NCBI GenBank assembly: GCA_963541275.1
Contig: CAUTSC010000001.1
Span: 329,879 to 393,878, forward strand
Length of the DNA stretch: 64,000 nt
From: an uncultured Pseudomonadota bacterium
Lineage (GTDB): Bacteria > Pseudomonadota > Alphaproteobacteria > Rs-D84 > CACZYB01
Direction: 5' to 3'
A program made the position numbers and the translations under genes. How positions within the stretch are numbered: the stretch's first letter is position 1; each line of letters starts with the position of its first letter. Below, one piece after another: positions 7,910 through 64,000 of this stretch. Under the pieces are notes generated by a model. That model searched no databases, was not told the DNA's origin, and saw nothing but the letters and a program-made list of their open reading frames with translations.

Positions 7910-7931
7910 TTTATTTTTTATACCTTTGCAT

Positions 7932-7967
7932 AAAACAAGGAATCTTAATAGTTCCTTGTTTTTTTAT
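7932..7967 (+). terminator. rho-independent terminator after rpsD
   Basis: A hairpin AAACAAGGAA-tcttaatag-TTCCTTGTTT followed by a T7 run. Confidence 0.6.
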
Positions 7968-8546
7968 GAAAAAATTTATTCCAAAAATTATTAATTTAGG
8001 ATTTTATAAAAGAGATCTTTTAAATATAGATTCATTCAAATATTTTTTTGTAAAAATATTCGCCAGAAACGTAGTATCTTAAATATATAATGAATAGGTG
8101 AAGTTTAATTTAAAAAATCATACAAATATTTTGTGATAACCAAAATATTTGCCAATTTTTGTTTATAAAAATTATATATAAATTTTTTTAGATAATTTTA
8201 TGAGTTTAAGAATTCTTGTTTAGTAAATAAATGGGGATATTTTTTTATATGTTATTTTAATATGTGTCATTGAAATATTTTATTTAAGCAACATATTTAA
8301 CAATTTTTGCTTGCAAAAATTATATAACAATACAGATTTTTTTCATTGTAAGATGTATTTTATTTAATCTATATGCATTCAAATATCATTATTGTAAAGA
8401 TATTTGCCAATTTTTACAAAGTAAAAATTATATAAATATAAATAAGTACATATATTTACTTTCCAATCATCCCTAGATATTTTTGCTCTTTCTATCTATA
8501 TACTCTCCCTTTTCTTCCACGTCTCAAAAAATCGCAGATTTCTGCC

Positions 8547-8626
8547 ATTTTGAAAATTTTTATAAAAAAATGTAAAAAATTTGCATTTTGTTCTTGACTT
8601 TTAAAAAATAATGATTATACTATAAT
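8547..8626 (+). repeat. about 80-nt intergenic repeat element, copy 1 (carries a consensus sigma70-like promoter)
   Basis: TTGAAAATTTTTATAAAAAAATGTAAAAAATTTGCATTTTGTTCTTGACTTTTAAAAAATAATGATTATACTATAAT. About 80 % identical to 19878..19957. Confidence 0.55.
8594..8621 (+). promoter_or_regulatory. candidate orphan sigma70 promoter (TTGACT-16 nt-TATACT)
   Basis: It has a perfect -35 TTGACT, a 16-nt spacer and a -10 TATACT within the repeat element. No ORF follows; a small hairpin, GGGTAaagtaTACCC, lies at about 8636-8650. Confidence 0.4.
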
Positions 8627-8715
8627 TAACCAAAGGGTAAAGTATACCCAAAATTTCCAGAGAATAGATTTTTTATTTGCTATGGTGCGGACGCAGCTCG
8701 TTGTTGCTATGTGAA

Positions 8716-8790
8716 TTTTATTAAATATTTCATCCCAATATTTTTCTAAAGAAAAATGTTGGCCGCAAACTTTGTTTGCAAAAAAAACTA
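8716..8790 (+). repeat. direct repeat copy A (ATTTCATCCCAATATTTTTCTAAAGAAAAATGTTGG...TTTGCAAAAA)
   Basis: It pairs with 8945..9020 (about 85 % identity). Confidence 0.5.
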
Positions 8791-8944
8791 GAGAATAGAA
8801 AAATTTTAAAAAAAAGTAAAAAAAATTACTTTCCCTCTTGAAATTTAAAAATCGGGTACATATATATAAAATACGGCAGGGGTGAAGTCTGCAAAAATCA
8901 ATGATAGGGATTTATTATTTCAAAAAATTACTAGTTTGTGTGAT

Positions 8945-9020
8945 ATGAATTTAAATATATCATTCCAATATTTTTCTAAAGAAAAATGTTGGCGAGTTTT
9001 TGCTTGCAAAAATTATACTT
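8945..9020 (+). repeat. direct repeat copy B (ATATCATTCCAATATTTTTCTAAAGAAAAATGTTGG...TTGCTTGCAAAAATT)
   Basis: It pairs with 8716..8790. Confidence 0.5.
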
Positions 9021-9069
9021 TAATTTTATCATGAATGTGGATAGAAGGGTCTGAAAGCCCTATTAAATG

Positions 9070-9190
9070 GTGTGCTGTAAAGCATAGTACAAAAAGGGTA
9101 TATTCCTACTGTAATGGTAGGAAGGTGTAGGAATATTCAAATACTATACACTATTTCCATTTAATATAGTTTTCAGCTTCCTATCGCTAA
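9070..9190 (+). promoter_or_regulatory. conserved leader / operator-like element, copy 1 (TAGGAA/TTCCTA repeat array) upstream of cassette 1
   Basis: ...TTCCTACTGTAATGGTAGGAAGGTGTAGGAATATTCAAATACTATACACTATTT....CTTCCTATC is near-identical to 61849..61952. It contains an inverted repeat TTCCTAC/GTAGGAA and four TAGGAA half-sites. Confidence 0.55.
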
Positions 9191-9221
9191 TGATTAGTGA
9201 TGAAAAACAAGGAGAGACTAT

Positions 9222-9707
9222 ATGAAAAAATCAAAAATTAAGTATGCGATTTTACTTGGGTTGTTATTGTATAAATCCAGTTCTTTTGCTGCAAGCGATG
9301 CAACAAAAAAGCTTATACATGAAACCCTTGCAAAATATGGAATAAGTTCCGGCGGGAAAGAAGTATGCGGTACGGGACGAGAGCCAGAATATAACAATCA
9401 AACGGGAGTGGTAAAATGTAAAAACAATGCTGATGGCGACAGCAATAACTGCTGGGATGCAAGTTCCAGATTATGTAAAGAATGTCCCGTCGGTACAATA
9501 GTTAGTTCAAAAGATCACATAACCTGCAGACAAATTGTATGTCCAGATGGATTTGAGCTGAAAGAAATTATAAACAATGAATGTCCAGATGGTTTTGAAA
9601 TCAAATGGTTTGATGAAACTTGTGATGCAGAAACCTACGGCTTTAATGAAGTTATGGCAACAAAAAATTACACCACACAATCAACAAATTGTAAAAACAT
9701 AAAATAA
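9222..9707 (+). CDS. Cys-rich secreted protein, cassette 1 gene A (conserved N-module ATKKLIHETLAKYGISSGGKEVCG plus variable CPxG[FYM]E[LI] repeats)
   Basis: It has a signal peptide, MKKSKIKYAILLGLLLYKSSSFA, and a GGAGAG RBS. The N-terminal 24 aa after the signal are almost identical to the 61966 ORF. The C-terminal half is Cys-rich with CPDGFEL/CPDGFEI repeats. Confidence 0.7.
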   Translation: MKKSKIKYAILLGLLLYKSSSFAASDATKKLIHETLAKYGISSGGKEVCGTGREPEYNNQTGVVKCKNNADGDSNNCWDASSRLCKECPVGTIVSSKDHITCRQIVCPDGFELKEIINNECPDGFEIKWFDETCDAETYGFNEVMATKNYTTQSTNCKNIK

Positions 9708-9718
9708 AGGAGGAGAAT

Positions 9719-10576
9719 ATGAAAAAACATAAAATAAGTAAATTAGCATTGTTAACAGGATTGTTAATGATAAACACAAACACAAAAGGTTTCTATCAAT
9801 GCGTTCCTAAACAGGATTGGTTTAAGAAACAATATTATATCTTGACATTAGAGGATAAATTTAGAGTTGCTAAAACACAGATAAATAATCATAATCTGTG
9901 GATATTAGTTGAAGAAAATAAAACAAGTGGGAGTTTAGGTATCGGGATATATAAAGTAATAGTTGCAGGTGGGTGTGGAGGTGGTGGTGGAAGTGCAGGG
10001 AAAGATTATGAGGAGTATAATGTGTATTATTATCGTAGTGGTGGTGCTGGAGCAGTAGGGGAAATATCAATGAAACTATTTTATATTGATAGGTTAATGT
10101 CATATGCTGCCTGTATAGGATTAAAGGGTAGAAATGGAAGTGTTGGAGCTGGGGATGGAGGAAGTGGTGGTGGAGGAGGTGCAGGGTCTGCATTTAAAAT
10201 TAATGATTTAGAAATAATGGTTTCTGGAGGAGGTGGTGGAGGAGGTGCTTCTTCTCCTCATGGGGGAGGTGGTGGCGGTGGTGGCGGATATGGATGTGAA
10301 ATAGGAGGAAGAGGAGGATGGGGAAATAATAGTTATGATCATGTAAGTGGAGGAAATATTGTTAGAGATAGATATTTAGGTGGTGCTAAAGGGATAGATG
10401 GAGGAGAAGATTATGGAAACAATGGTGGAAGTGGTGGAAAAGGTGGTAGACCATGTGCAAATGGGGGTGTTGGAGGTACAGATTTGGGAAGTGGAGTAGG
10501 TGGTAATAGTTGTGCTACAAAAGGAAATGGCAATACTGGTGATGGTTATGTTAAAATTTACAAATATATTGGATAA
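9719..10576 (+). CDS. Gly-rich secreted protein, cassette 1 gene B
   Basis: It has a signal peptide and the conserved FYQCVPK..W start. Long GGGGGGG/GGSGG tracts give a local GC spike from GGN codons. The conserved C-terminus is GDGYVKIYKYIG. It is a paralog of 62523..63080. The RBS is AAGGAGGAG. Confidence 0.7.
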   Translation: MKKHKISKLALLTGLLMINTNTKGFYQCVPKQDWFKKQYYILTLEDKFRVAKTQINNHNLWILVEENKTSGSLGIGIYKVIVAGGCGGGGGSAGKDYEEYNVYYYRSGGAGAVGEISMKLFYIDRLMSYAACIGLKGRNGSVGAGDGGSGGGGGAGSAFKINDLEIMVSGGGGGGGASSPHGGGGGGGGGYGCEIGGRGGWGNNSYDHVSGGNIVRDRYLGGAKGIDGGEDYGNNGGSGGKGGRPCANGGVGGTDLGSGVGGNSCATKGNGNTGDGYVKIYKYIG

Positions 10577-10579
10577 TGT

Positions 10580-10608
10580 GTAAGATAGTATTTACTATCT
10601 TACTTTTC
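10580..10608 (+). terminator. hairpin terminator after cassette 1 (overlaps the glgB stop)
   Basis: GTAAGATAGTA-tt-TACTATCTTAC followed by TTTTC. Confidence 0.5.
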
Positions 10609-12793
10609 ATTCCATATTCATAAGTATAACACAGCTAAGGGGTGGTAGGGTTATATTGATTGAAAATTGTTTATTGTGCCATGGGGTGTTTTCTGTTTCT
10701 ATTGTCATTCGGTTTTTAACTCCACTGCCACCATACATAATGTCATCGCTGTTAAAAATTTCTTTTAAAATTGTATCTTTTGTGATACCAACTCTGTAAT
10801 CATATCTTACAACCGGAGTCATATTTACAACTATTATAACAAAATTATTTTTGCTGCTGTCATATCTTATATAACTGAAAATTTGATTATTTATATCATC
10901 TCCACAAATCCATTCAAAAAGATCTTTATTAGAGTCACCCTGATATAAACATTTATTGGTTGTATAAAGTAAATTTAAATCTTTTACCAGGTTTTGGATT
11001 CCTTTGTGTTTTGGATCATTTAATAAATGCCAATCAAGACTTTGTTCTTTATTCCATTCGTTATATTGACCAAACTCCCCCCCCATAAATAATAATTTTT
11101 TTCCAGGGTAAGACCACATGAAAGATAAAAATAACCTTAAATTTGCAAATTTTTGCCATTCATCACCTGGCATTTTTGAAAGCAAACTTTGTTTTCCATA
11201 AACAACTTCATCATGAGAAATTGGAAGCACAAAATTTTCACTGAACGCATAATGAAATGTAAATCCAATTAAATGTTGATGATATTTTCTGTAAACTGGA
11301 TCTTTTGTAAAATAGGAAAGTATGTCATGCATCCAACCCATATTCCATTTATAACCAAAACCCAGTCCTCCACAATTAACTGGTTTTGAAACATCTTTCC
11401 AACTGGTGGATTCTTCGGCATATGATGCAAAATGTGGACATTTTTCATAAAGTAAAATGTTGGTGTTTTTTAAAAAATCTATTGCTTCTAAATTATCGTG
11501 CCCACCATATTTATTTGGCGTCCATTCACCTGGACTTTTTGAATAGTCAAGATATAACATAGATGCAACCGCATCAAAGCGAAGTCCGTCAACTTTATAT
11601 TCTGTTAACCAAAAAAGGGCAGAGGAAAATAAAAAATTAACAACTTCTTTTTTAGAGTAGTCATAAATTTTTGTACCCCAATCTTTATGTTCACCTTTTT
11701 TAGTATCCGCATATTCATAAAGTGGTGTTCCATCAAAATTAGCAAGTCCGTGCGGATCCTTTGGAAAATGTGCCGACACCCAATCAAGTATAACGGCAAT
11801 ACCAGCCTTATGACATTCATTTATAAAATATTTAAAATCTGTTGGTGTACCATATCTGGATGTTGGGGCAAACATGCCAATTGTTTGATAACCCCATGAA
11901 TCATCAAATGGATATTCCATAACAGGCATTATTTCAATATGTGTGAAACCCATATATTTAACATAAGGGATAAGTTCGTTTGCAAGATCGCGATAAGTAA
12001 GCCAAAAATAACCATCCTTTTTTCGCCAAGAACCAAGATGAACTTCGTAAATTGAGATAGGTTTTGAAATGGAGTTAATAGTGTCTTTTTTTAGATTCCA
12101 TTCTGGTGTTTCATCCCAATTAAAATTTTTTATATCCCAAACAATAGAAGCATTTTTTGGTCTCATTTCTTGAAAAAAACCAAAAGGATCAGTTTTAAAT
12201 GGAAGTAGTTTTTTATTTTTATCCAAGAGTTCAAATTTGTAAAGCTCACCATCACCAATGTCAGGAATAAATATATCCCACAAACCACTTGTTAAATGTT
12301 TTCTCATAACATTAACACGCCCATCCCAATTATTAAAATTGCCAATCACACTTACCCTGTGTGCGTTTGGTGCCCAAAGTGCGAATGAAACACCCTTTAT
12401 TCCATTAAGGGTTATTGTTTGCGCACCAAGTTTGTTAAATAATTCAAAATGACGACCTTCACAAAATAAATAATCATCTATATCGCCAATTATGGATGGA
12501 AAATTATAAACATCATTTTTAATTGTTTCATTATTATTATAATCAATGATTTTTAATTTATAATTAGTGATTGCTTCTGTAAATTGTAGTTCAAATAATC
12601 CAAACTCGTGAATTTTTTGCATTTGAAATTCAGTGTTGTTTTTGATTATAAAAATTGATTTTGCAGTTGGAATAAAAACTCTTATCACACAAGCTGTATC
12701 AAAATTATGAAGTCCCAAAACAGAAAATGGATCAGTATGAAAACCATTTACAATAGCATCAATTTCTTGATTGTTTAAAACTTGTGCTGACAA
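10607..12793 (-). CDS. glgB: 1,4-alpha-glucan (glycogen) branching enzyme
   Basis: A 728-aa protein with GH13 catalytic motifs: GLRFDAV, HFPKD, YAESHD-like, and the GFGYKWNMGWMHD block typical of GlgB. Confidence 0.95.
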   Translation of the reverse strand: MSAQVLNNQEIDAIVNGFHTDPFSVLGLHNFDTACVIRVFIPTAKSIFIIKNNTEFQMQKIHEFGLFELQFTEAITNYKLKIIDYNNNETIKNDVYNFPSIIGDIDDYLFCEGRHFELFNKLGAQTITLNGIKGVSFALWAPNAHRVSVIGNFNNWDGRVNVMRKHLTSGLWDIFIPDIGDGELYKFELLDKNKKLLPFKTDPFGFFQEMRPKNASIVWDIKNFNWDETPEWNLKKDTINSISKPISIYEVHLGSWRKKDGYFWLTYRDLANELIPYVKYMGFTHIEIMPVMEYPFDDSWGYQTIGMFAPTSRYGTPTDFKYFINECHKAGIAVILDWVSAHFPKDPHGLANFDGTPLYEYADTKKGEHKDWGTKIYDYSKKEVVNFLFSSALFWLTEYKVDGLRFDAVASMLYLDYSKSPGEWTPNKYGGHDNLEAIDFLKNTNILLYEKCPHFASYAEESTSWKDVSKPVNCGGLGFGYKWNMGWMHDILSYFTKDPVYRKYHQHLIGFTFHYAFSENFVLPISHDEVVYGKQSLLSKMPGDEWQKFANLRLFLSFMWSYPGKKLLFMGGEFGQYNEWNKEQSLDWHLLNDPKHKGIQNLVKDLNLLYTTNKCLYQGDSNKDLFEWICGDDINNQIFSYIRYDSSKNNFVIIVVNMTPVVRYDYRVGITKDTILKEIFNSDDIMYGGSGVKNRMTIETENTPWHNKQFSINITLPPLSCVILMNME

Positions 12794-24652: not shown

Positions 24653-26788
24653 GTGTTATTATTTTATGGTAGAGAGAATAAAATGGCATTTTTTAAAAAT
24701 ATTTTTGAAGATAAGGAAATGGGGGAGTATAACAAGGCTGCCCGATGGCTTTTGTCTGCTTATATACTTCTTGGAATTTTTTATTGGTTTTGGCTTGTTT
24801 CTATTTTCCCTATCTCATATTGGATAAATCATAATTTTGATAATAGTGTTTTTTATTCTCATGCAATGAAAGTTTATTTTAGCAATATTTATAAAACTGC
24901 TGGATTTTATGTGTTGTATGAATATTGGTTGTGGGGTTTTTCCTTTCTACATGGTGAGACAACAACAATTATTCCAGTTATTCCAATTATGGCATATCCG
25001 TCGTTGCAACTTATGATAAAGAAAAAGAATCCTTATAAGATGATGGTTGTGCAGGATACTGCGAAAAAAGCTAATGAATCTATACTTAAAAAAATGAAAG
25101 TTTGGGATGGATTTATCATAGTTCTTGGTAAATTTAAAAAACGATTTTTAAAATTAAGTGAAACTTTATCTGTGCTTGCTTTTGCTCCACCTGGAACTGG
25201 TAAAACAGTTGGTATTGTTGTCCCTACAATTTTTGAATGTGATACGGTCAGCATGATTGTTAATGATCCAAAACCTGAACTTTGTTATATAACAAGTGGT
25301 TATAGAGCAAAAATCGGACCTGTGTTTATTATAAATTGGGGTGAAGAGGATGATCCAGAAAATAATATTTATTATCCATCCTGGAATCCTTTGTCCCCTG
25401 GAACTATTCCAAAACAAGGACCAGAAAGGGATATGTATGTTGATAGTATGGTTAATGTTTTTGTGCAAGATCCCGCTGGCTCATCTGCAGATCCGCATTG
25501 GACCAAAACTGGACGAAATGCTTTGTCTGGATTTATACATTTTATAGTTTCAAAGTGTGAAAGAGCAAAAATAAATGATTATTTTTATTCACGCCTTTTA
25601 AATGGGGAATTTAATTCAAACGATGCAATAAAACTTGAAACATATTATTCCAATATGAATACAACATATGCAAAGGCTGCTCTTTCTTTACTGAGAACTG
25701 GTGAGATGACAATAAATAATTACGTCCCGGTTGGAACATGGGATAATATTCCAGAGGAATGGGTTGGACGCGAAGCAAGTATACCACTTCTTTTAGATTG
25801 GTTAAATGAATCACAGGTTCAAATAAGTAAAAATATTACGAAAAGGAAAGAAGAGGGGGATCAAATGGCATCTCTTGCAGATCCTATGAAAGAGATGTTA
25901 GAAGATGCAGTAAGCGAATCTTTAAATTATGGTTATGCACACAGGGCTGTTTTAGAGTTGACACAGCTTGCAAATACTCCTGATAAAGAAAGGGGATCTA
26001 TTTTATCAACTGCACTTACAGGAATAGGAATTTTTAAAAACCAGGCGGTAAGGCAAAGAACGGATCACAGTGATTTTACATTTAAAGATTTACGTGGAAT
26101 GGTTGATCCAACTGATGGAAAAATTAAACCTATAACTGTTTATTTATCTGTTAATCAGGCTGATGCAAGGGCTCTTAATGTTATAACAGGTGTTTTTGTA
26201 GAGCTTATGTCAAATTTTTTAATTTCTAATCCTCCAAATAAAGTTGTAAATTTTAAAGGTGATAAGATAGGCCCTTATCCAGTTTTATTTGTGCTTGATG
26301 AATTTCCGCAAATGCCAAAATTAAATGCGGTAATAGATGGACCAGCAATAGGAAGAGGACAAAAAGTTTCATATTTATTGATAGCTCAGGATTTTGCTCA
26401 GGTAGAAGCTGGGTATGGTAAAGAAGCTGTTGAAACTTTGATGTCAACTACTGCTGCAAAAATACTTCTTACACAAAATAATGAAAATACTGCAAGGCGT
26501 TTTTCGGAAATTATGGGTAAAGAATCATTTAGTAAAGAAGTATATAAAAATGAAAGTCACAAAGATAAATTTAATTTAGATTCAGAGGAAAGTCTTGATT
26601 CAAAATCACTTTATTCAACATCAGATATAATGAAATTATCACCTGATAAGCAAATAGTTTTAATGCAAGGTTATCCAACAAATCCAATTGAGGCAGAAAG
26701 CCCAAGGTATTATAAGGATCCAGATCTTCTTGCAAAATCAAAGATTCCAGCTGCAACTCCTATTCCAAAATGGTTATTTAAAAAATAA
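24653..26788 (+). CDS. virD4: type IV secretion coupling protein (VirD4/TraG family)
   Basis: It has N-terminal TM helices, a Walker A (APPGTGKTVGIVVP), a Walker B (PVLFVLDEFPQMPKL) and an acidic C-terminal tail; 711 aa. Confidence 0.75.
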   Translation: MLLFYGRENKMAFFKNIFEDKEMGEYNKAARWLLSAYILLGIFYWFWLVSIFPISYWINHNFDNSVFYSHAMKVYFSNIYKTAGFYVLYEYWLWGFSFLHGETTTIIPVIPIMAYPSLQLMIKKKNPYKMMVVQDTAKKANESILKKMKVWDGFIIVLGKFKKRFLKLSETLSVLAFAPPGTGKTVGIVVPTIFECDTVSMIVNDPKPELCYITSGYRAKIGPVFIINWGEEDDPENNIYYPSWNPLSPGTIPKQGPERDMYVDSMVNVFVQDPAGSSADPHWTKTGRNALSGFIHFIVSKCERAKINDYFYSRLLNGEFNSNDAIKLETYYSNMNTTYAKAALSLLRTGEMTINNYVPVGTWDNIPEEWVGREASIPLLLDWLNESQVQISKNITKRKEEGDQMASLADPMKEMLEDAVSESLNYGYAHRAVLELTQLANTPDKERGSILSTALTGIGIFKNQAVRQRTDHSDFTFKDLRGMVDPTDGKIKPITVYLSVNQADARALNVITGVFVELMSNFLISNPPNKVVNFKGDKIGPYPVLFVLDEFPQMPKLNAVIDGPAIGRGQKVSYLLIAQDFAQVEAGYGKEAVETLMSTTAAKILLTQNNENTARRFSEIMGKESFSKEVYKNESHKDKFNLDSEESLDSKSLYSTSDIMKLSPDKQIVLMQGYPTNPIEAESPRYYKDPDLLAKSKIPAATPIPKWLFKK

Positions 26789-38936: not shown

Positions 38937-39230
38937 AGTGGGGATAGTTGAAGAACTGCTGTATATTATAGGTATATATAGAGGAAAGTCTGGACACCTC
39001 AAGAGAAAGATAACGGATAACGTCCGTCTGTAGTAATACGAGGATTAGAGCCACAGAGACGAGTCTGGAAACAGAGTGAAACGGGCAATCTCTATCTGGT
39101 GCAAGACTAAATAGAAGGGTGTTGAGTGCTCTTGTGAACCCTTGGGTGAGTCGCATGAAATATGTAGTAATATATATTCAAGATAAATAGTTCTTTTTAA
39201 CAGAATCCAGCTTACAGACTATCCCTTGTA
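38937..39230 (+). ncRNA. rnpB: RNase P RNA (reduced type A)
   Basis: P4 5' strand is GAGGAAAGTCTGGAC and P4 3' strand is ACAGAATCCAGCTTA, with a compensatory CTGG/CCAG change versus the consensus CCGG/CCGG. P1 pairs GGGATAGT (38941) with ACTATCCC (39218). Internal ...ACAGAGTGAAACGGGCAAT... and GGTGCAAGACTAAATAGAAGGGTG blocks match conserved regions. It lies in a gap with no ORF. Confidence 0.7.
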
Positions 39231-42765: not shown

Positions 42766-42841
42766 GGGTGATTAGCTCAGTCGGTAGAGCAACTGACTTT
42801 TAATCAGTGGGTCACAGGTTCGAATCCTGTATCACCCACCA
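42766..42841 (+). tRNA. tRNA-Lys (anticodon TTT)
   Basis: GGGTGATTAGCTCAGTCGGTAGAGCAACTGACTTTTAATCAGTGGGTCACAGGTTCGAATCCTGTATCACCCACCA folds into a cloverleaf, with anticodon loop CTTTTAA and an encoded CCA. Confidence 0.9.
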
Positions 42842-59512: not shown

Positions 59513-59589
59513 TGGTCGGGGAGACAAGATTTGAACTTGCGGCACCTAGTTCCCAAAACTAGTACTCTACCAGACTGAGCTACTCCCCG
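59513..59589 (-). tRNA. tRNA-Pro (anticodon TGG)
   Basis: The reverse complement CGGGGAGTAGCTCAGTCTGGTAGAGTACTAGTTTTGGGAACTAGGTGCCGCAAGTTCAAATCTTGTCTCCCCGACCA folds into a cloverleaf with anticodon loop TTTGGGA. Confidence 0.9.
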
Positions 59590-61763: not shown

Positions 61764-61848
61764 TATAAAAATATTTTTCTTGTATAAAAATCTTTTTAAT
61801 ATTATCATAAAATTTAAAGAAAGGGTGTGACAACCCATGTACTAATAA

Positions 61849-61952
61849 AGTGCTGAATAGCACAAAGTGTTTTCCTACTGCAAGGTAGGAAGGTATAGGA
61901 ATATCCAATACTATACACTATTTTAGTACATAGTTGTCAACTTCCTATCAAA
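61849..61952 (+). promoter_or_regulatory. conserved leader / operator-like element, copy 2 (TAGGAA/TTCCTA repeat array) upstream of cassette 2
   Basis: GTGCTGAATAGCAC hairpin, then TTCCTACTGCAAGGTAGGAAGGTATAGGAATATCCAATACTATACACTATTT...CTTCCTATC. Confidence 0.55.
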
Positions 61953-61965
61953 AAAGGAGGATTAG

Positions 61966-62502
61966 ATGAAAAACTATATAAAAAATCATGGCAAAATTTT
62001 GCTGTTTGCTACGGGGATTTTATTTTCGCACAAAGCATTTTCAGCAAGTGAGGCAACTAAGAAGTTGATACACGAAACCCTTGCAAAATATGGAATAAGT
62101 TCCGGTGGTAAGGAAGTTTGCGGGGGTGATGAAGAACCAATTTGTAATGAACCAGGTTGCAAAGTTAAATGCAACAGGGTAGATGCAACAACTGGATTAA
62201 AGGCAAACAATTTCTGGTCGCCAAGTGATAGGTTATGTAAATCTTGTCCGGTTGGAACAATACTCAACAAAACCTCATTCCAAAGTTGTAATCAAGTTGT
62301 GTGTCCAGAAGGGACAACTGGGATAAAAGTGAGTGGTGGAAATTGTCCCACTGGGATGGATTTATTTGCTCCCAGCAAAGGAATCTGCCCCGAGGGATAT
62401 GAACTTATCAAAATTACAAATGGAAAATGCCCGGATGGGATGGAGCTTATTGATTTAAGAAACAACTGCCCATCAGGATATGAAATGTTTAAACAATCAT
62501 AA
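61966..62502 (+). CDS. Cys-rich secreted protein, cassette 2 gene A
   Basis: A signal peptide, then SEATKKLIHETLAKYGISSGGKEVCG (identical to cassette 1 apart from the first residue, which is D in cassette 1 and E here). The repeats are CPEGYEL, CPDGMEL, CPSGYEM and CPTGMDL. Confidence 0.7.
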   Translation: MKNYIKNHGKILLFATGILFSHKAFSASEATKKLIHETLAKYGISSGGKEVCGGDEEPICNEPGCKVKCNRVDATTGLKANNFWSPSDRLCKSCPVGTILNKTSFQSCNQVVCPEGTTGIKVSGGNCPTGMDLFAPSKGICPEGYELIKITNGKCPDGMELIDLRNNCPSGYEMFKQS

Positions 62503-62522: not shown

Positions 62523-63080
62523 ATGATGAAAAAACAAATAAGTAAAATAAGTTTATTAAGTGCAATGCTTGTTGCAACTATGGTAAACGCCCAAGAATTC
62601 TACACCTGCGTTCCAAAAAGGAATTGGTGGAGTGATCTTATAAAAGATGGAGTAGAAAAAGGAGTTACAGAAGGTAAGAAAGAAATAGAAGAAAATAAAT
62701 GGGAAACTATTATAGATCTTACTACGGACAGTAATCCTGTTGAATTAAAACAGGCATTGTTGCCAGGCAAATACAGAGTGACAGTTGCTGTTGCAGGAGT
62801 AGGTATGGACGGAGAGAAGAAAGTAAGAATATTTACCCTTGATAAGAAAGAAGAATTTAAAGCATGTATAGAAGTAAGTGGAGGAAATGGGGGAGATAAA
62901 TATAGTATTGGTAAAGCAACATATATTGGTGGTGGCGGTGGGGGTGGTGGGGGAAGTTATTTTGAAATAGGTGAAGTTAAACTTTTATTAAAAGGTGGTG
63001 ACGGAGAAGATGCCACTCAAGAAAAAGCAGGTAAAGGTGCCAGTCCAGATGGATATATTAAAATAGAAAAATGGAAATAG
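62523..63080 (+). CDS. Gly-rich secreted protein, cassette 2 gene B
   Basis: A signal peptide, EFYTCVPK..W, a GGGGGGGGG tract, and a C-terminal PDGYIKIEKWK (cf. GDGYVKIYKYIG in cassette 1). Confidence 0.7.
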   Translation: MMKKQISKISLLSAMLVATMVNAQEFYTCVPKRNWWSDLIKDGVEKGVTEGKKEIEENKWETIIDLTTDSNPVELKQALLPGKYRVTVAVAGVGMDGEKKVRIFTLDKKEEFKACIEVSGGNGGDKYSIGKATYIGGGGGGGGGSYFEIGEVKLLLKGGDGEDATQEKAGKGASPDGYIKIEKWK

Positions 63081-63138: not shown

Positions 63139-64000
63139 TTATTTAATTAAATCCAATTGTGTGTTGTATAGATCTATGTATTGTGAGGCGGATTTGTTCC
63201 ATGAAAAATCTTGGTTCATTGCTTGTTTTATTATGTTATTCCATATTTTTTTATCATTTTGATATAAATCAAGCGTACGAATTGTCGTATATATAAGATC
63301 ATGTACAGAATAATTTTCAAACAAGAAGCCCGTTGCATCATGTGAAACTATGGTATGAGTAAAATCTGCATTTATAATTGAATCGGCAAGTCCTCCAGTT
63401 TTGCGAGCAATAGGAATTGTACCATATTTCATTGCAAAAATTTGTGTCAGTCCGCAAGGTTCATAAAGTGCTGGATTTATTAAAATATCCGATCCTGCAA
63501 TTAAAAGATGTGATAAATCTTCATCAAAATCTGTGATTACAATTTGATTTGGATGATTGTTTTGCAACATTTTTAACTTTGGAACGTATCCACCTTGATC
63601 TGTTCCCATAATTATAATTTGTATGTTATGCATTACAAGAGCAGGTATCGCCTCTATTAAAATATCTATCCCTTTTTGTGTGGCAAGACGGCTTAATACA
63701 CAAAACACAGGAATATTTGGATTTTGTATTATGTTAAATCTTTTTTGCAATTCCAATTTATTTTGTTGTTTGCCAGTTTTAAAAGTTTTTTTATCATAAT
63801 TTGTAAGAATAGTTTTATCAGTTTCTGGATTCCAAACACTATAATCAACTCCATTTAAAATCCCAGTTAGCTGATTTTTTCTTTGTATCATATCATGATG
63901 AAGTCCATAGCCATAAAATTCAGTTTGTATTTCATTTGCATAATTTGGACTTACTGTTGTGATTTTATCTGCAAAATGAATCCCAGCTTTTAAAAAAGAA
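63139..64000 (-). CDS. glgA: glycogen synthase (C-terminal part; gene continues past the window end)
   Basis: The minus-strand frame reads continuously from 64000: ...FLKAGIHFADKITTVSPNYANEIQTEFYGYGLHHDMIQRKNQLTGILNGVDYSVWNPETD...YEPCGLTQIFAMKYGTIPIARKTGGLADSI, which are GT5 GlgA motifs. The track start at 63891 is an internal Met. Confidence 0.85.
   Translation of the reverse strand, partial: SFLKAGIHFADKITTVSPNYANEIQTEFYGYGLHHDMIQRKNQLTGILNGVDYSVWNPETDKTILTNYDKKTFKTGKQQNKLELQKRFNIIQNPNIPVFCVLSRLATQKGIDILIEAIPALVMHNIQIIIMGTDQGGYVPKLKMLQNNHPNQIVITDFDEDLSHLLIAGSDILINPALYEPCGLTQIFAMKYGTIPIARKTGGLADSIINADFTHTIVSHDATGFLFENYSVHDLIYTTIRTLDLYQNDKKIWNNIIKQAMNQDFSWNKSASQYIDLYNTQLDLIK

Follow-up and report, generated by a model that had tools for sequence, protein, structure and literature searches.

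The window analyzed here, meaning the whole 64,000-nucleotide (nt) stretch of contig CAUTSC010000001.1 (assembly GCA_963541275.1, from an uncultured alphaproteobacterium), has a G+C content of 28% and contains two related two-gene cassettes, A and B. Each consists of a gene for a signal-peptide-bearing Cys-rich protein followed by one for a Gly-rich protein, and each is preceded by a noncoding block that is nearly the same in both. The original prediction presented this block as an operator or a cis-regulatory RNA and leaned toward the operator; of the two, the RNA is supported by covariation, and the operator, with its half-sites and internal -10 box, is abandoned. The block is here regarded as the core of a two-state leader of about 145 nt that would gate access to the Shine-Dalgarno sequence and is rather likely a diverged, chromosome-borne form of the C4-type antisense module known from phages P1 and P7. 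The cassette genes are the following.

Start codon at 9222 (+): Cys-rich protein of 161 amino acids (aa), cassette A
9719-10576 (+): Gly-rich protein, cassette A
Start codon at 61966 (+): Cys-rich protein of 178 aa, cassette B
62523-63080 (+): Gly-rich protein, cassette B

The Repeated Block

The two near-identical blocks reported at 9100-9188 and 61870-61951 are indeed found there and can be aligned, with 68 of 85 aligned columns identical overall and 47 of 53 in the central part, while the coding sequences of A and B share about 68% nucleotide identity. The core 21-mer, GGTAGGAAGGTRTAGGAATAT, occurs in the 64 kb only at 9116-9136 and 61884-61904, even when up to three mismatches are allowed; no occurrence is expected by chance, and 100 dinucleotide shuffles gave no match. 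The hexamer TAGGAA/TTCCTA is under-represented in the window (22 sites observed, 38.6 expected), and each leader accounts for four of the 22 sites, eight together.

9103, 9118, 9128 and 9178: TAGGAA/TTCCTA sites of copy A
61872, 61886, 61896 and 61942: TAGGAA/TTCCTA sites of copy B

The original prediction had named a common dispersed repeat as the finding that would undo it. This objection fails within the 64-kb window, because a covariance model (CM) of the whole element, R1, finds only these two copies (146 and 128 bits), the next best hit having 20 bits. In 185,579 representative genomes the exact core had one chance match, in a coding region of Saccharibacteria, and no real match, and two matches came from JGI metagenomes.

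Comparative Evidence for a Folded Leader RNA

A search with the 161-aa protein returned 39 relatives, and the contigs available only from ENA, together with the two window copies, provided nine distinct leaders. Two divergent ones, L011 and L012 (84 and 75 bits), came from a DNA-pattern scan of JGI metagenomes and raised the set to 11. These two, on JGI/NCBI metagenome contigs (690-850 in L011 and 4232-4390 in L012), precede a gene for an APH/choline-kinase-like protein instead of a secreted protein, and they differ from the others by a stronger promoter (TTGCAA-16-TATAAT), an extra 5' hairpin, and a CCACC 3' tail like that of C4, which is absent from the window copies. A protein-based metagenome scan gave no further homologues, BLAST searches of plasmids and phages with the leader gave no match, and the literature on the motif and on related riboswitch candidates contained nothing relevant.

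RNAalifold, applied to the nine leaders, predicted five helices, namely P1a and P1b, which form a long two-part closing helix, P2, and the hairpins P3 and P4. A further hairpin, P2a, was found by eye in every leader with unrelated sequences; it corresponds to the small hairpins noted earlier upstream of both blocks, which are real. The resulting four-way junction, called fold A, is matched by the single-sequence minimum-energy folds of most leaders. Its elements in the window copies are given below together with those of the alternative fold discussed later; R2 designates a second CM, built from the 11 leaders in that alternative fold alone, and the E-values of both models are rough.

9043-9187 (+): whole leader RNA of copy A, a1/b1 part plus C4-like part (R1, 146.3 bits, E 4e-28)
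9046-9058 (+): 5' strands of helix P1, AGGGU 9046-9050 pairing with 9176-9180, a 1-nt bulge, and a1-like UGAAAGC 9052-9058 pairing with a' 9169-9175
9061-9070 (+): b1-like UAUUAAAUGG, pairing with 9157-9166 (P2)
9073-9084 (+): hairpin P2a, UGCU-GUAA-AGCA
9104-9122 (+): hairpin P3, decoy UCCUACU 9104-9110 pairing with GGUAGGA 9116-9122
9116-9124 (+): 5' strand of the alternative outer stem, GGUAGGAAG, pairing with 9177-9185
9123-9152 (+): hairpin P4, which is hairpin 1 of the C4-like fold (AGGUGUAG, 13-nt loop GAAUAUUCAAAUA, CUAUAC(A)CU)
9151-9176 (+): hairpin 2 of the C4-like fold, stem CUAU 9151-9154 with AUAG 9166-9169, b'-like loop CCAUUUAAUA 9157-9166, then a'-like junction (G)UUUUCAG 9169-9176
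9177-9185 (+): pyrimidine tail CUUCCUAUC, 3' strand of the outer stem, overlapping the P1a 3' strand (9176-9180) and resembling an anti-Shine-Dalgarno sequence
9185-9199 (+): extra hairpin CGCUAA-UGA-UUAGUG, common to L006 and L009
9201-9207 (+): a2-like UGAAAAA, complementary to a' UUUUCA, a weak candidate for the a2 role
9209-9224 (+): ribosome-binding region of copy A, Shine-Dalgarno AAGGAGAG 9209-9216 and start codon 9222
61819-61951 (+): whole leader RNA of copy B (R1, 128.1 bits)
61822-61845 (+): 5' strands, AGGGU 61822-61826, a1-like UGACAAC 61828-61834, b1-like AUGUACUAA 61837-61845
61850-61863 (+): hairpin P2a, GUGCU-GAAU-AGCAC
61873-61919 (+): P3 (61873-61879 with 61884-61890), outer-stem 5' strand (61884-61892) and P4 (61891-61919)
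61923-61949 (+): b'-like UUAGUACAU 61923-61931, a'-like GUUGUCA 61933-61939, and tail or outer-stem 3' strand CUUCCUAUC 61941-61949
61954-61968 (+): ribosome-binding region of copy B, Shine-Dalgarno AAGGAGGA 61954-61961 and start codon 61966

Conservation of pairing was evaluated on two alignments, and in both of them compensated pairs were found.

MAFFT alignment of 9 leaders: pairing in 93.4% of cells (36-53% with slid partners); compensation at 13 pairs and in 33 cells, a level that 0 of 500 shuffles reach
CM-fitted alignment of 11 leaders: pairing in 95.5% of cells (35-55% with slid partners); compensation at 11 pairs and in 40 cells, reached by 12 of 500 shuffles for pairs and by 0 of 500 for cells

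The compensated pairs include five in P1b (a1:a') and five to eight in P2 (b1:b'). All seven P1b pairs form in 10 of the 11 leaders, one position showing as many as six pair types, and compensatory changes occur in eight of the 10 pairs of P2. P3 is paired in 100% of cells, its three one-sided changes all leading to G-U, and P4 in 98.6-98.9%, with one A-U pair compensated to G-C. The core close to the junction is invariant, and the peripheral stems covary. The strongest covariation links segments about 100 nt apart, which an array of half-sites cannot explain. Furthermore, the hexamers themselves vary (TGGAAA, TGGGAA, TAGGAG, TTTCTA, CTCCTG, and CCTCCTAC) in such a way that the DNA motif is lost and the pairing is kept, with G-U or Watson-Crick pairs maintained on the plus strand only. 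The pair counts, the compensation, and this strand-specific wobble exclude a DNA operator as the main explanation, and the block is, as far as comparison of the leaders can tell, the core of a folded leader RNA of about 145 nt.

Several features singled out earlier acquire a different meaning in this RNA. The inverted repeat TTCCTAC...GTAGGAA and the hexamers are present, the former as hairpin P3, but they are not half-sites of a response regulator, since they are strands of the RNA helices P3, P4, and P1a. The TATACA assumed to be a -10 box lies, with the second TAGGAA, in P4, of which it is the 3' strand, and it becomes TGCACG or TGCACA in L005, L008, L011, and L012 with the pairing kept. 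Nor is the flanking DNA unrelated, as had been stated, because homology and structure extend about 60 nt further upstream, up to the promoter (9004-9032 and 61780-61808).

Four candidates were rejected. The P1a register AGGG:UCCU was dropped for AGGGU:ACUUC, which fits the changes in L003, L009, L011, and L012; a leader peptide, suggested by a 16-codon open reading frame starting with ATG in copy A, is abolished in copy B by a 1-nt indel; the GGA motifs that could be CsrA-type sites are in stems and not in loops; and a pseudoknot joining the P4 loop to the AUUU that comes after it was rejected on geometry, the region being without variation.

As for the extra hairpin at 9185-9199, between tail and Shine-Dalgarno, copy A is the only one in the window to have it. 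Its 3' arm, UUAGUGA, equals b1/b2 of phage P1 and a1 of L003 and L006, and it may be the fossil of a target site.

Promoter and Transcription

A sigma-70-type promoter, TTG(C/T)A(A/T)-16/17-TAnnAT, precedes the block in 11 of 11 loci. The distance from the end of its -10 element to the first helix is 9-13 nt, except for two loci where it is 28 nt. This conserved position places the block within the transcript, so that the block is probably transcribed, and the hexamers, lying 70-150 nt downstream of the conserved -35/-10 elements, neither overlap nor adjoin the promoter.

9004-9032 (+): candidate promoter of copy A from the promoter scan, -35 TTGCAA 9004-9009, 17-nt spacer, -10 TATCAT 9027-9032; predicted transcription start at about 9039, 6-7 nt ahead of the first helix
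61780-61808 (+): candidate promoter of copy B, -35 TTGTAT 61780-61785, 17-nt spacer, -10 TATCAT 61803-61808; below the scan threshold, its position being conserved in the homologues

In the window leaders, no terminator and no second promoter were found between the RNA and the start codon, which is 17-37 nt past the tail, and the cassette operon must therefore be translated from the leader. The situation is different in L011 and L012, where an intrinsic terminator follows the RNA, starting within the tail; no other promoter was found ahead of the kinase gene in either contig, whose upstream neighbor is encoded on the other strand.

A C4-like Alternative Fold

The 3' two-thirds of the leader can also adopt a second arrangement, fold B, made of the outer stem GGUAGGAAG:CUUCCUAUC, two hairpins, and a single-stranded a' junction. 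The outer stem is pairable at nine of nine positions in 11 of 11 leaders, and three phage copies agree with this; some of the changes are compensated. Among the 11 leaders, 99.5% of the fold B cells are paired, as opposed to 25-55% when slid, with hairpin 1 paired in 98.5% and the stem of hairpin 2 invariant. This outer stem is incompatible with P3 and P1a.

Fold B is the architecture of C4, an RNA whose Rfam family (RF01695) and that of its partner c4-a1b1 (RF03163) are both listed as motifs in PMC2864571, and whose function is summarized in PMC8198154. C4, a1, and b1 belong to the immI operon of phages P1 and P7 (Citron and Schuster 1990, as relayed by PMC2864571 and PMC8198154). In the phage P1 record the promoter, a1, b1, C4, a2, b2, and icd are annotated, a1 and b1 as "putative" sites. 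In its C4, hairpin 2 carries b' as its loop and is followed by a' as the junction, and the segments of P1b and P2 occupy the same places in the leaders.

The correspondence can be followed element by element. Both modules place on one transcript a promoter, a1 in a GG...CC hairpin, b1, spacer hairpins, an RNA of about 75 nt, and the regulated gene, and in both the short RNA has an outer stem, hairpin 1, hairpin 2 with the b' loop, and the a' junction. The leaders accordingly contain an RNA of about 75-80 nt with a long outer stem, two hairpins, and a junction before the 3' strand, whose a' and b' are complementary to a1 and then b1 located upstream on the same transcript (P1b and P2). The minimum-energy fold of the phage P1 precursor, with a1:a', b1:b', and an upstream decoy hairpin on the 5' strand of the outer stem, reproduces fold A. 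At the sequence level, the a1 hairpin of L009, GGUUUGACAGCC, is nearly identical to that of phage P1, GGUUUUGACAGCC, and a' of copy B, UUGUCAAC, resembles its CUGUCAAC. The Rfam C4 model aligns to L012 exactly in fold B, GGUAGGAGG pairing with CCUCCUACC and the two hairpins enclosed, at 24.1 bits, where the gathering score is 45, and c4-a1b1 gives a weak match to the a1 hairpin of copy B (61823-61836) of 9.4 bits, where the gathering score is 46.7.

A scan of viral contigs with the core led to a phage, L013 (IMG/VR), in which GGUAGGAAGGUGUGGAAAUACCCAAUACCACAC...UUUUUCAGCUUCCUAUC is just upstream of a KilA-N/Ant-like gene. The layout is canonical, with a1, the RNA, and a2 over the Shine-Dalgarno of this gene, and L013 folds like the phage P1 precursor and fold A of the leaders (z -5.9). 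R2 matches L013 at 1633-1704 with 45.5 bits (E 4e-9), and it also gives a marginal full-length hit on the Rfam-grade sRNA-Xcc1 at 501-582, with 17 bits and an E of 0.047 on rough calibration. The Rfam model of sRNA-Xcc1 in turn scores 69.7 bits at 503-586 and 29.9 bits at 1635-1708, for a gathering score of 53, and the latter, sub-threshold copy shares with window copy A a 20-nt core and the 16-nt UUUUCAGCUUCCUAUC. L013 has in all three sRNA-Xcc1/C4-like copies (503-586, 1346-1434, and 1635-1708) among antirepressor-like genes, the third flanked by an a1 (1539-1546) and an a2 (1724-1731) that are both complementary to the junction UUUUUCAG.

The leaders resemble sRNA-Xcc1 (RF02221) in the outer stem, the two hairpins, the UUUUCAG junction, and the pyrimidine 3' strand. 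sRNA-Xcc1 is described as a free trans-acting small RNA occurring in tandem copies in islands (PMC12189769). Unlike this RNA, which is borne by integrons or islands of Xanthomonas and Xylella, the window copies are within an mRNA leader that has a covarying 5' partner domain, and the Rfam model of sRNA-Xcc1 gave no match on the leaders.

Compared with the known C4/a1b1 modules, the leaders are new in falling below the Rfam thresholds, in residing on an alphaproteobacterial chromosome, in preceding genes for secreted proteins or a kinase instead of icd, ant, or kilA, in being compacted to 145 nt, in mostly missing a2/b2, and in having two strands, the pyrimidine tail and the decoy, that look like an anti-Shine-Dalgarno sequence. 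Regarding a2/b2, RNAduplex comparisons of a'b' with the downstream 60-120 nt gave z values from -2.3 to +1.0 and no consistent site, plausible a2-like sites being found only in copy A (9201-9207) and in L006. The classical C4 mechanism therefore cannot simply be transferred to copies without a2/b2. Stand-alone C4-like copies were also sought in the window with R2, and none was found.

The Proposed Switch

The pairing of the pyrimidine tail is split, in the folding ensemble, between the 5' end of the leader and the downstream Shine-Dalgarno region, and in the minimum-energy fold of copy B the CUUCCU of the tail pairs with AGGAGG. Constrained folding indicated that eight of the 11 leaders expose the Shine-Dalgarno more in fold A than in fold B, and that in one more the two folds are about equal. 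The contrast is strong in L011 and L012, with accessibilities of 0.71 and 0.57 in fold A versus 0.01 and 0.00 in fold B; here the decoy strand, AAUCUCCU, is the exact 8-nt complement of the Shine-Dalgarno region, AGGAGAUU. The incompatibility of the outer stem with P3 and P1a, the sharing of the tail, and this difference in accessibility led us to propose a leader with two states.

According to this proposal, the leader RNA would be transcribed from the sigma-70-type promoter just upstream, and its 5' third would present the a1- and b1-like segments, able to pair with a' and b', together with the decoy UCCUAC, a copy of the outer-stem strand. In fold A, a1:a', b1:b', and the decoy hairpin would be formed around the four-way junction, leaving the Shine-Dalgarno mostly free (open state), whereas in the C4-like fold B the freed pyrimidine strand of the decoy could occlude it (closed state). 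Switching between the two would gate translation of the secreted Cys-rich/Gly-rich cassette. The assignment of ON and OFF is purely thermodynamic and comes from the predicted folds, and the transcription start and the trigger are what we infer from the arrangement.

C4 is processed by RNase P, and the leader may be processed into a free small RNA as well. By analogy with C4, the trigger would most likely be a released C4-like RNA that binds, with specificity for its own copy, to the a1/b1 of newly made transcripts. The original prediction held that the two cassettes are coregulated. This is plausible insofar as they share the leader type, but the recognition helices of A and B differ, which argues for copy-specific rather than common control. 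A stronger version, in which each leader has its own a/b code and the released RNA recognizes only the a1/b1 of its own cassette type and flips nascent leaders closed, providing an address-coded self-regulation of the secreted-protein family, is unlikely.

The a and b "address" sequences are shuffled among the leaders: L009 combines a1/a' of the copy B type with b1/b' of copy A, and a third a type is common to L003 and L006. The pattern suggests modular recombination among leaders.

Alternative Explanations

A number of observations weigh against the two-state C4-type leader. The homologues are only 11, and most of them were fetched via the downstream protein, so that the association with the cassette genes is biased. 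Fold B rests mainly on invariance and homology, with only two covarying pairs among the leaders, and in most copies its stability is below that of fold A by 3-16 kcal/mol; L002 and L003 deviate from the predicted pattern of accessibility. None of the leaders attains the gathering score of an Rfam 15 model, C4 and sRNA-Xcc1 have no hit on the window copies even at E<=10, and R2 does not match the C4 of phage P1 itself. Lastly, most copies, including B, have no recognizable a2/b2 near the ribosome-binding site, and the context of phage immunity is missing, the ant, icd, and kilA genes being absent around the cassettes.

A riboswitch for a small molecule or an ion would have its aptamer in the junction, with the ligand stabilizing P1 and so freeing the Shine-Dalgarno in the window or permitting the terminator in L011 and L012. 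We consider it unlikely, even though an invariant core near the junction surrounded by covarying peripheral stems, two expression platforms after the same RNA (sequestration of the Shine-Dalgarno by CUUCCU and an intrinsic terminator), and two unrelated types of downstream genes, for secreted Cys-rich proteins and for an APH-like kinase, would all agree with it. Mutually exclusive helices, an anti-Shine-Dalgarno-like tract by the ribosome-binding site, and a terminator version in relatives are likewise found in riboswitch and attenuator platforms, but covarying stems followed by an expression platform are not specific for riboswitches. Unlike in riboswitches, the recognition helices resemble RNA-RNA address sequences, and the a1/b1-C4 correspondence with phage P1 and L013 leaves no helix unexplained; moreover, the regulated genes are neither metabolic nor for transport and suggest no ligand, the distribution is very narrow (none in representative genomes, two in JGI metagenomes), and no Rfam riboswitch family matches. 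Slightly less probable still is that the element is only the gene of a trans-acting small RNA of the sRNA-Xcc1/C4 type, whose position is incidental and without effect in cis. The RNA of L011 and L012, which has a strong promoter of its own and a terminator directly after it, the trans-acting character and tandem island copies of sRNA-Xcc1 (PMC12189769), and the three copies in L013 speak for such a gene, but the window operon has no terminator or second promoter between RNA and start codon, the kinase gene of L011 and L012 has no other promoter, and their decoy strand is exactly complementary, over 8 nt, to the Shine-Dalgarno region.

The two remaining explanations concern the DNA. An array of TAGGAA half-sites for a multimeric factor, overlapping an internal promoter, was suggested by the four hexamers, some in either orientation, that each copy has in a span of 80 bp, together with the A/T-rich TATACA, but it is now very improbable: the homologues break the hexamers and keep the RNA pairing, often by G-U, which is meaningless in duplex DNA, the covariation spans about 100 nt, the conserved promoter is upstream of the block and not inside it, and TATACA is replaced in four homologues. 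It is even harder to believe that the similarity has no function and was left by a recent duplication or gene conversion between the cassettes. These are paralogous, and a 32-nt coding stretch is also identical in A and B; however, the core is 89% identical where the coding sequences reach about 68%, the divergence of the helices between the cores is compensatory, and the fold persists where the downstream proteins are only 48-60% identical and also before an unrelated gene.

Genomic Surroundings

The cassette proteins gave no usable family match in Pfam and NCBIfam, and the AlphaFold2 model of the Cys-rich protein has a predicted local distance difference test score of 59.5, too low for a fold search. 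A 401-kb contig with at least seven Cys-rich paralogues also encodes an S4 protein identical to that of the window, and judging from this identity it belongs to this organism or to a close relative. An alphaproteobacterial source agrees with the AddB of the window, which is of the type found in that class, and with its S4 protein, whose nearest named counterparts are those of "Alphaproteobacteria bacterium" metagenome-assembled genomes (82% identity) and of Rickettsiales ones (about 70%). The neighbors of the cassettes are rpsD, glgB, comEC, and glgA-like genes. Both cassettes are convergent to what we take to be glycogen-metabolism genes.

10607-12793 (-): GlgB-like branching enzyme, next to cassette A
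63139-63891 (-): glycogen-synthase-like protein, next to cassette B
24653-26788: VirD4/TraG-like coupling protein
38940-39230: class A RNase P RNA, short (291 nt), 207 bits
7012-7088: tRNA-Val (TAC)
42766-42841: tRNA-Lys (TTT)
59513-59589: tRNA-Pro (TGG)

The RNase P RNA and the three tRNAs were the only hits when the whole window was scanned with Rfam at gathering thresholds. Two further stretches are common to the cassettes. The 32-nt coding stretch GAAACCCTTGCAAAATATGGAATAAGTTCCGG (9321-9352 and 62074-62105) is identical in both Cys-rich genes with zero synonymous changes, which points to gene conversion or to an additional constraint at the nucleotide level. The sequence ACTATAT(G/A)AAAAA(A)TCA (9217-9233 and 61972-61987), to which the leader's invariant AUAUAGU is complementary, contains the ATG in A; the start codons differ, translation of B beginning 13 nt upstream.

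The AT-rich spacer of 1.1 kb upstream of cassette A (7910-9030) is made of repeated small units, which also occur ahead of the leader in L003.

About 8109-8176, 8257-8324, 8560-8790 and 8800-9020: spacer units upstream of cassette A
1120-1290 of L003: spacer unit

Each unit has a promoter-like TTGAAA/TTGACT-17-TATATA followed by a GGGGU...ACCC hairpin. The units also carry a 12-bp terminator-like hairpin (CCAATATTTTTCTAAAGAAAAATGTTGG plus a T-run, 8965-8992) and end in a GCAAAC...GTTTGC/TTGCAAAAA segment, which in the last copy provides the -35 element of the leader promoter. They had no Rfam match and may be tandem genes for small RNAs.

Significance

The recognition that the repeated hexamers are strands of RNA helices corrects a plausible operator call, and it extends the C4/a1b1 architecture, catalogued for phages and mainly for Gammaproteobacteria, to chromosomal, non-phage operons of an uncultured, AT-rich alphaproteobacterium, where the module precedes a multicopy family of secreted proteins. 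Because current Rfam models miss these members, the C4-type family is probably broader than annotated. The covariation of the leaders also constitutes direct comparative evidence for the pairing of a1/b1 with a'/b' inside the precursor, and the copies without a2/b2 point to a switch of antisense origin that works entirely within one molecule. If the address-coded regulation were true, the organism would have a means of copy-specific negative feedback, or of mutually exclusive expression, of its secreted proteins that needs neither a2/b2 nor a protein regulator.

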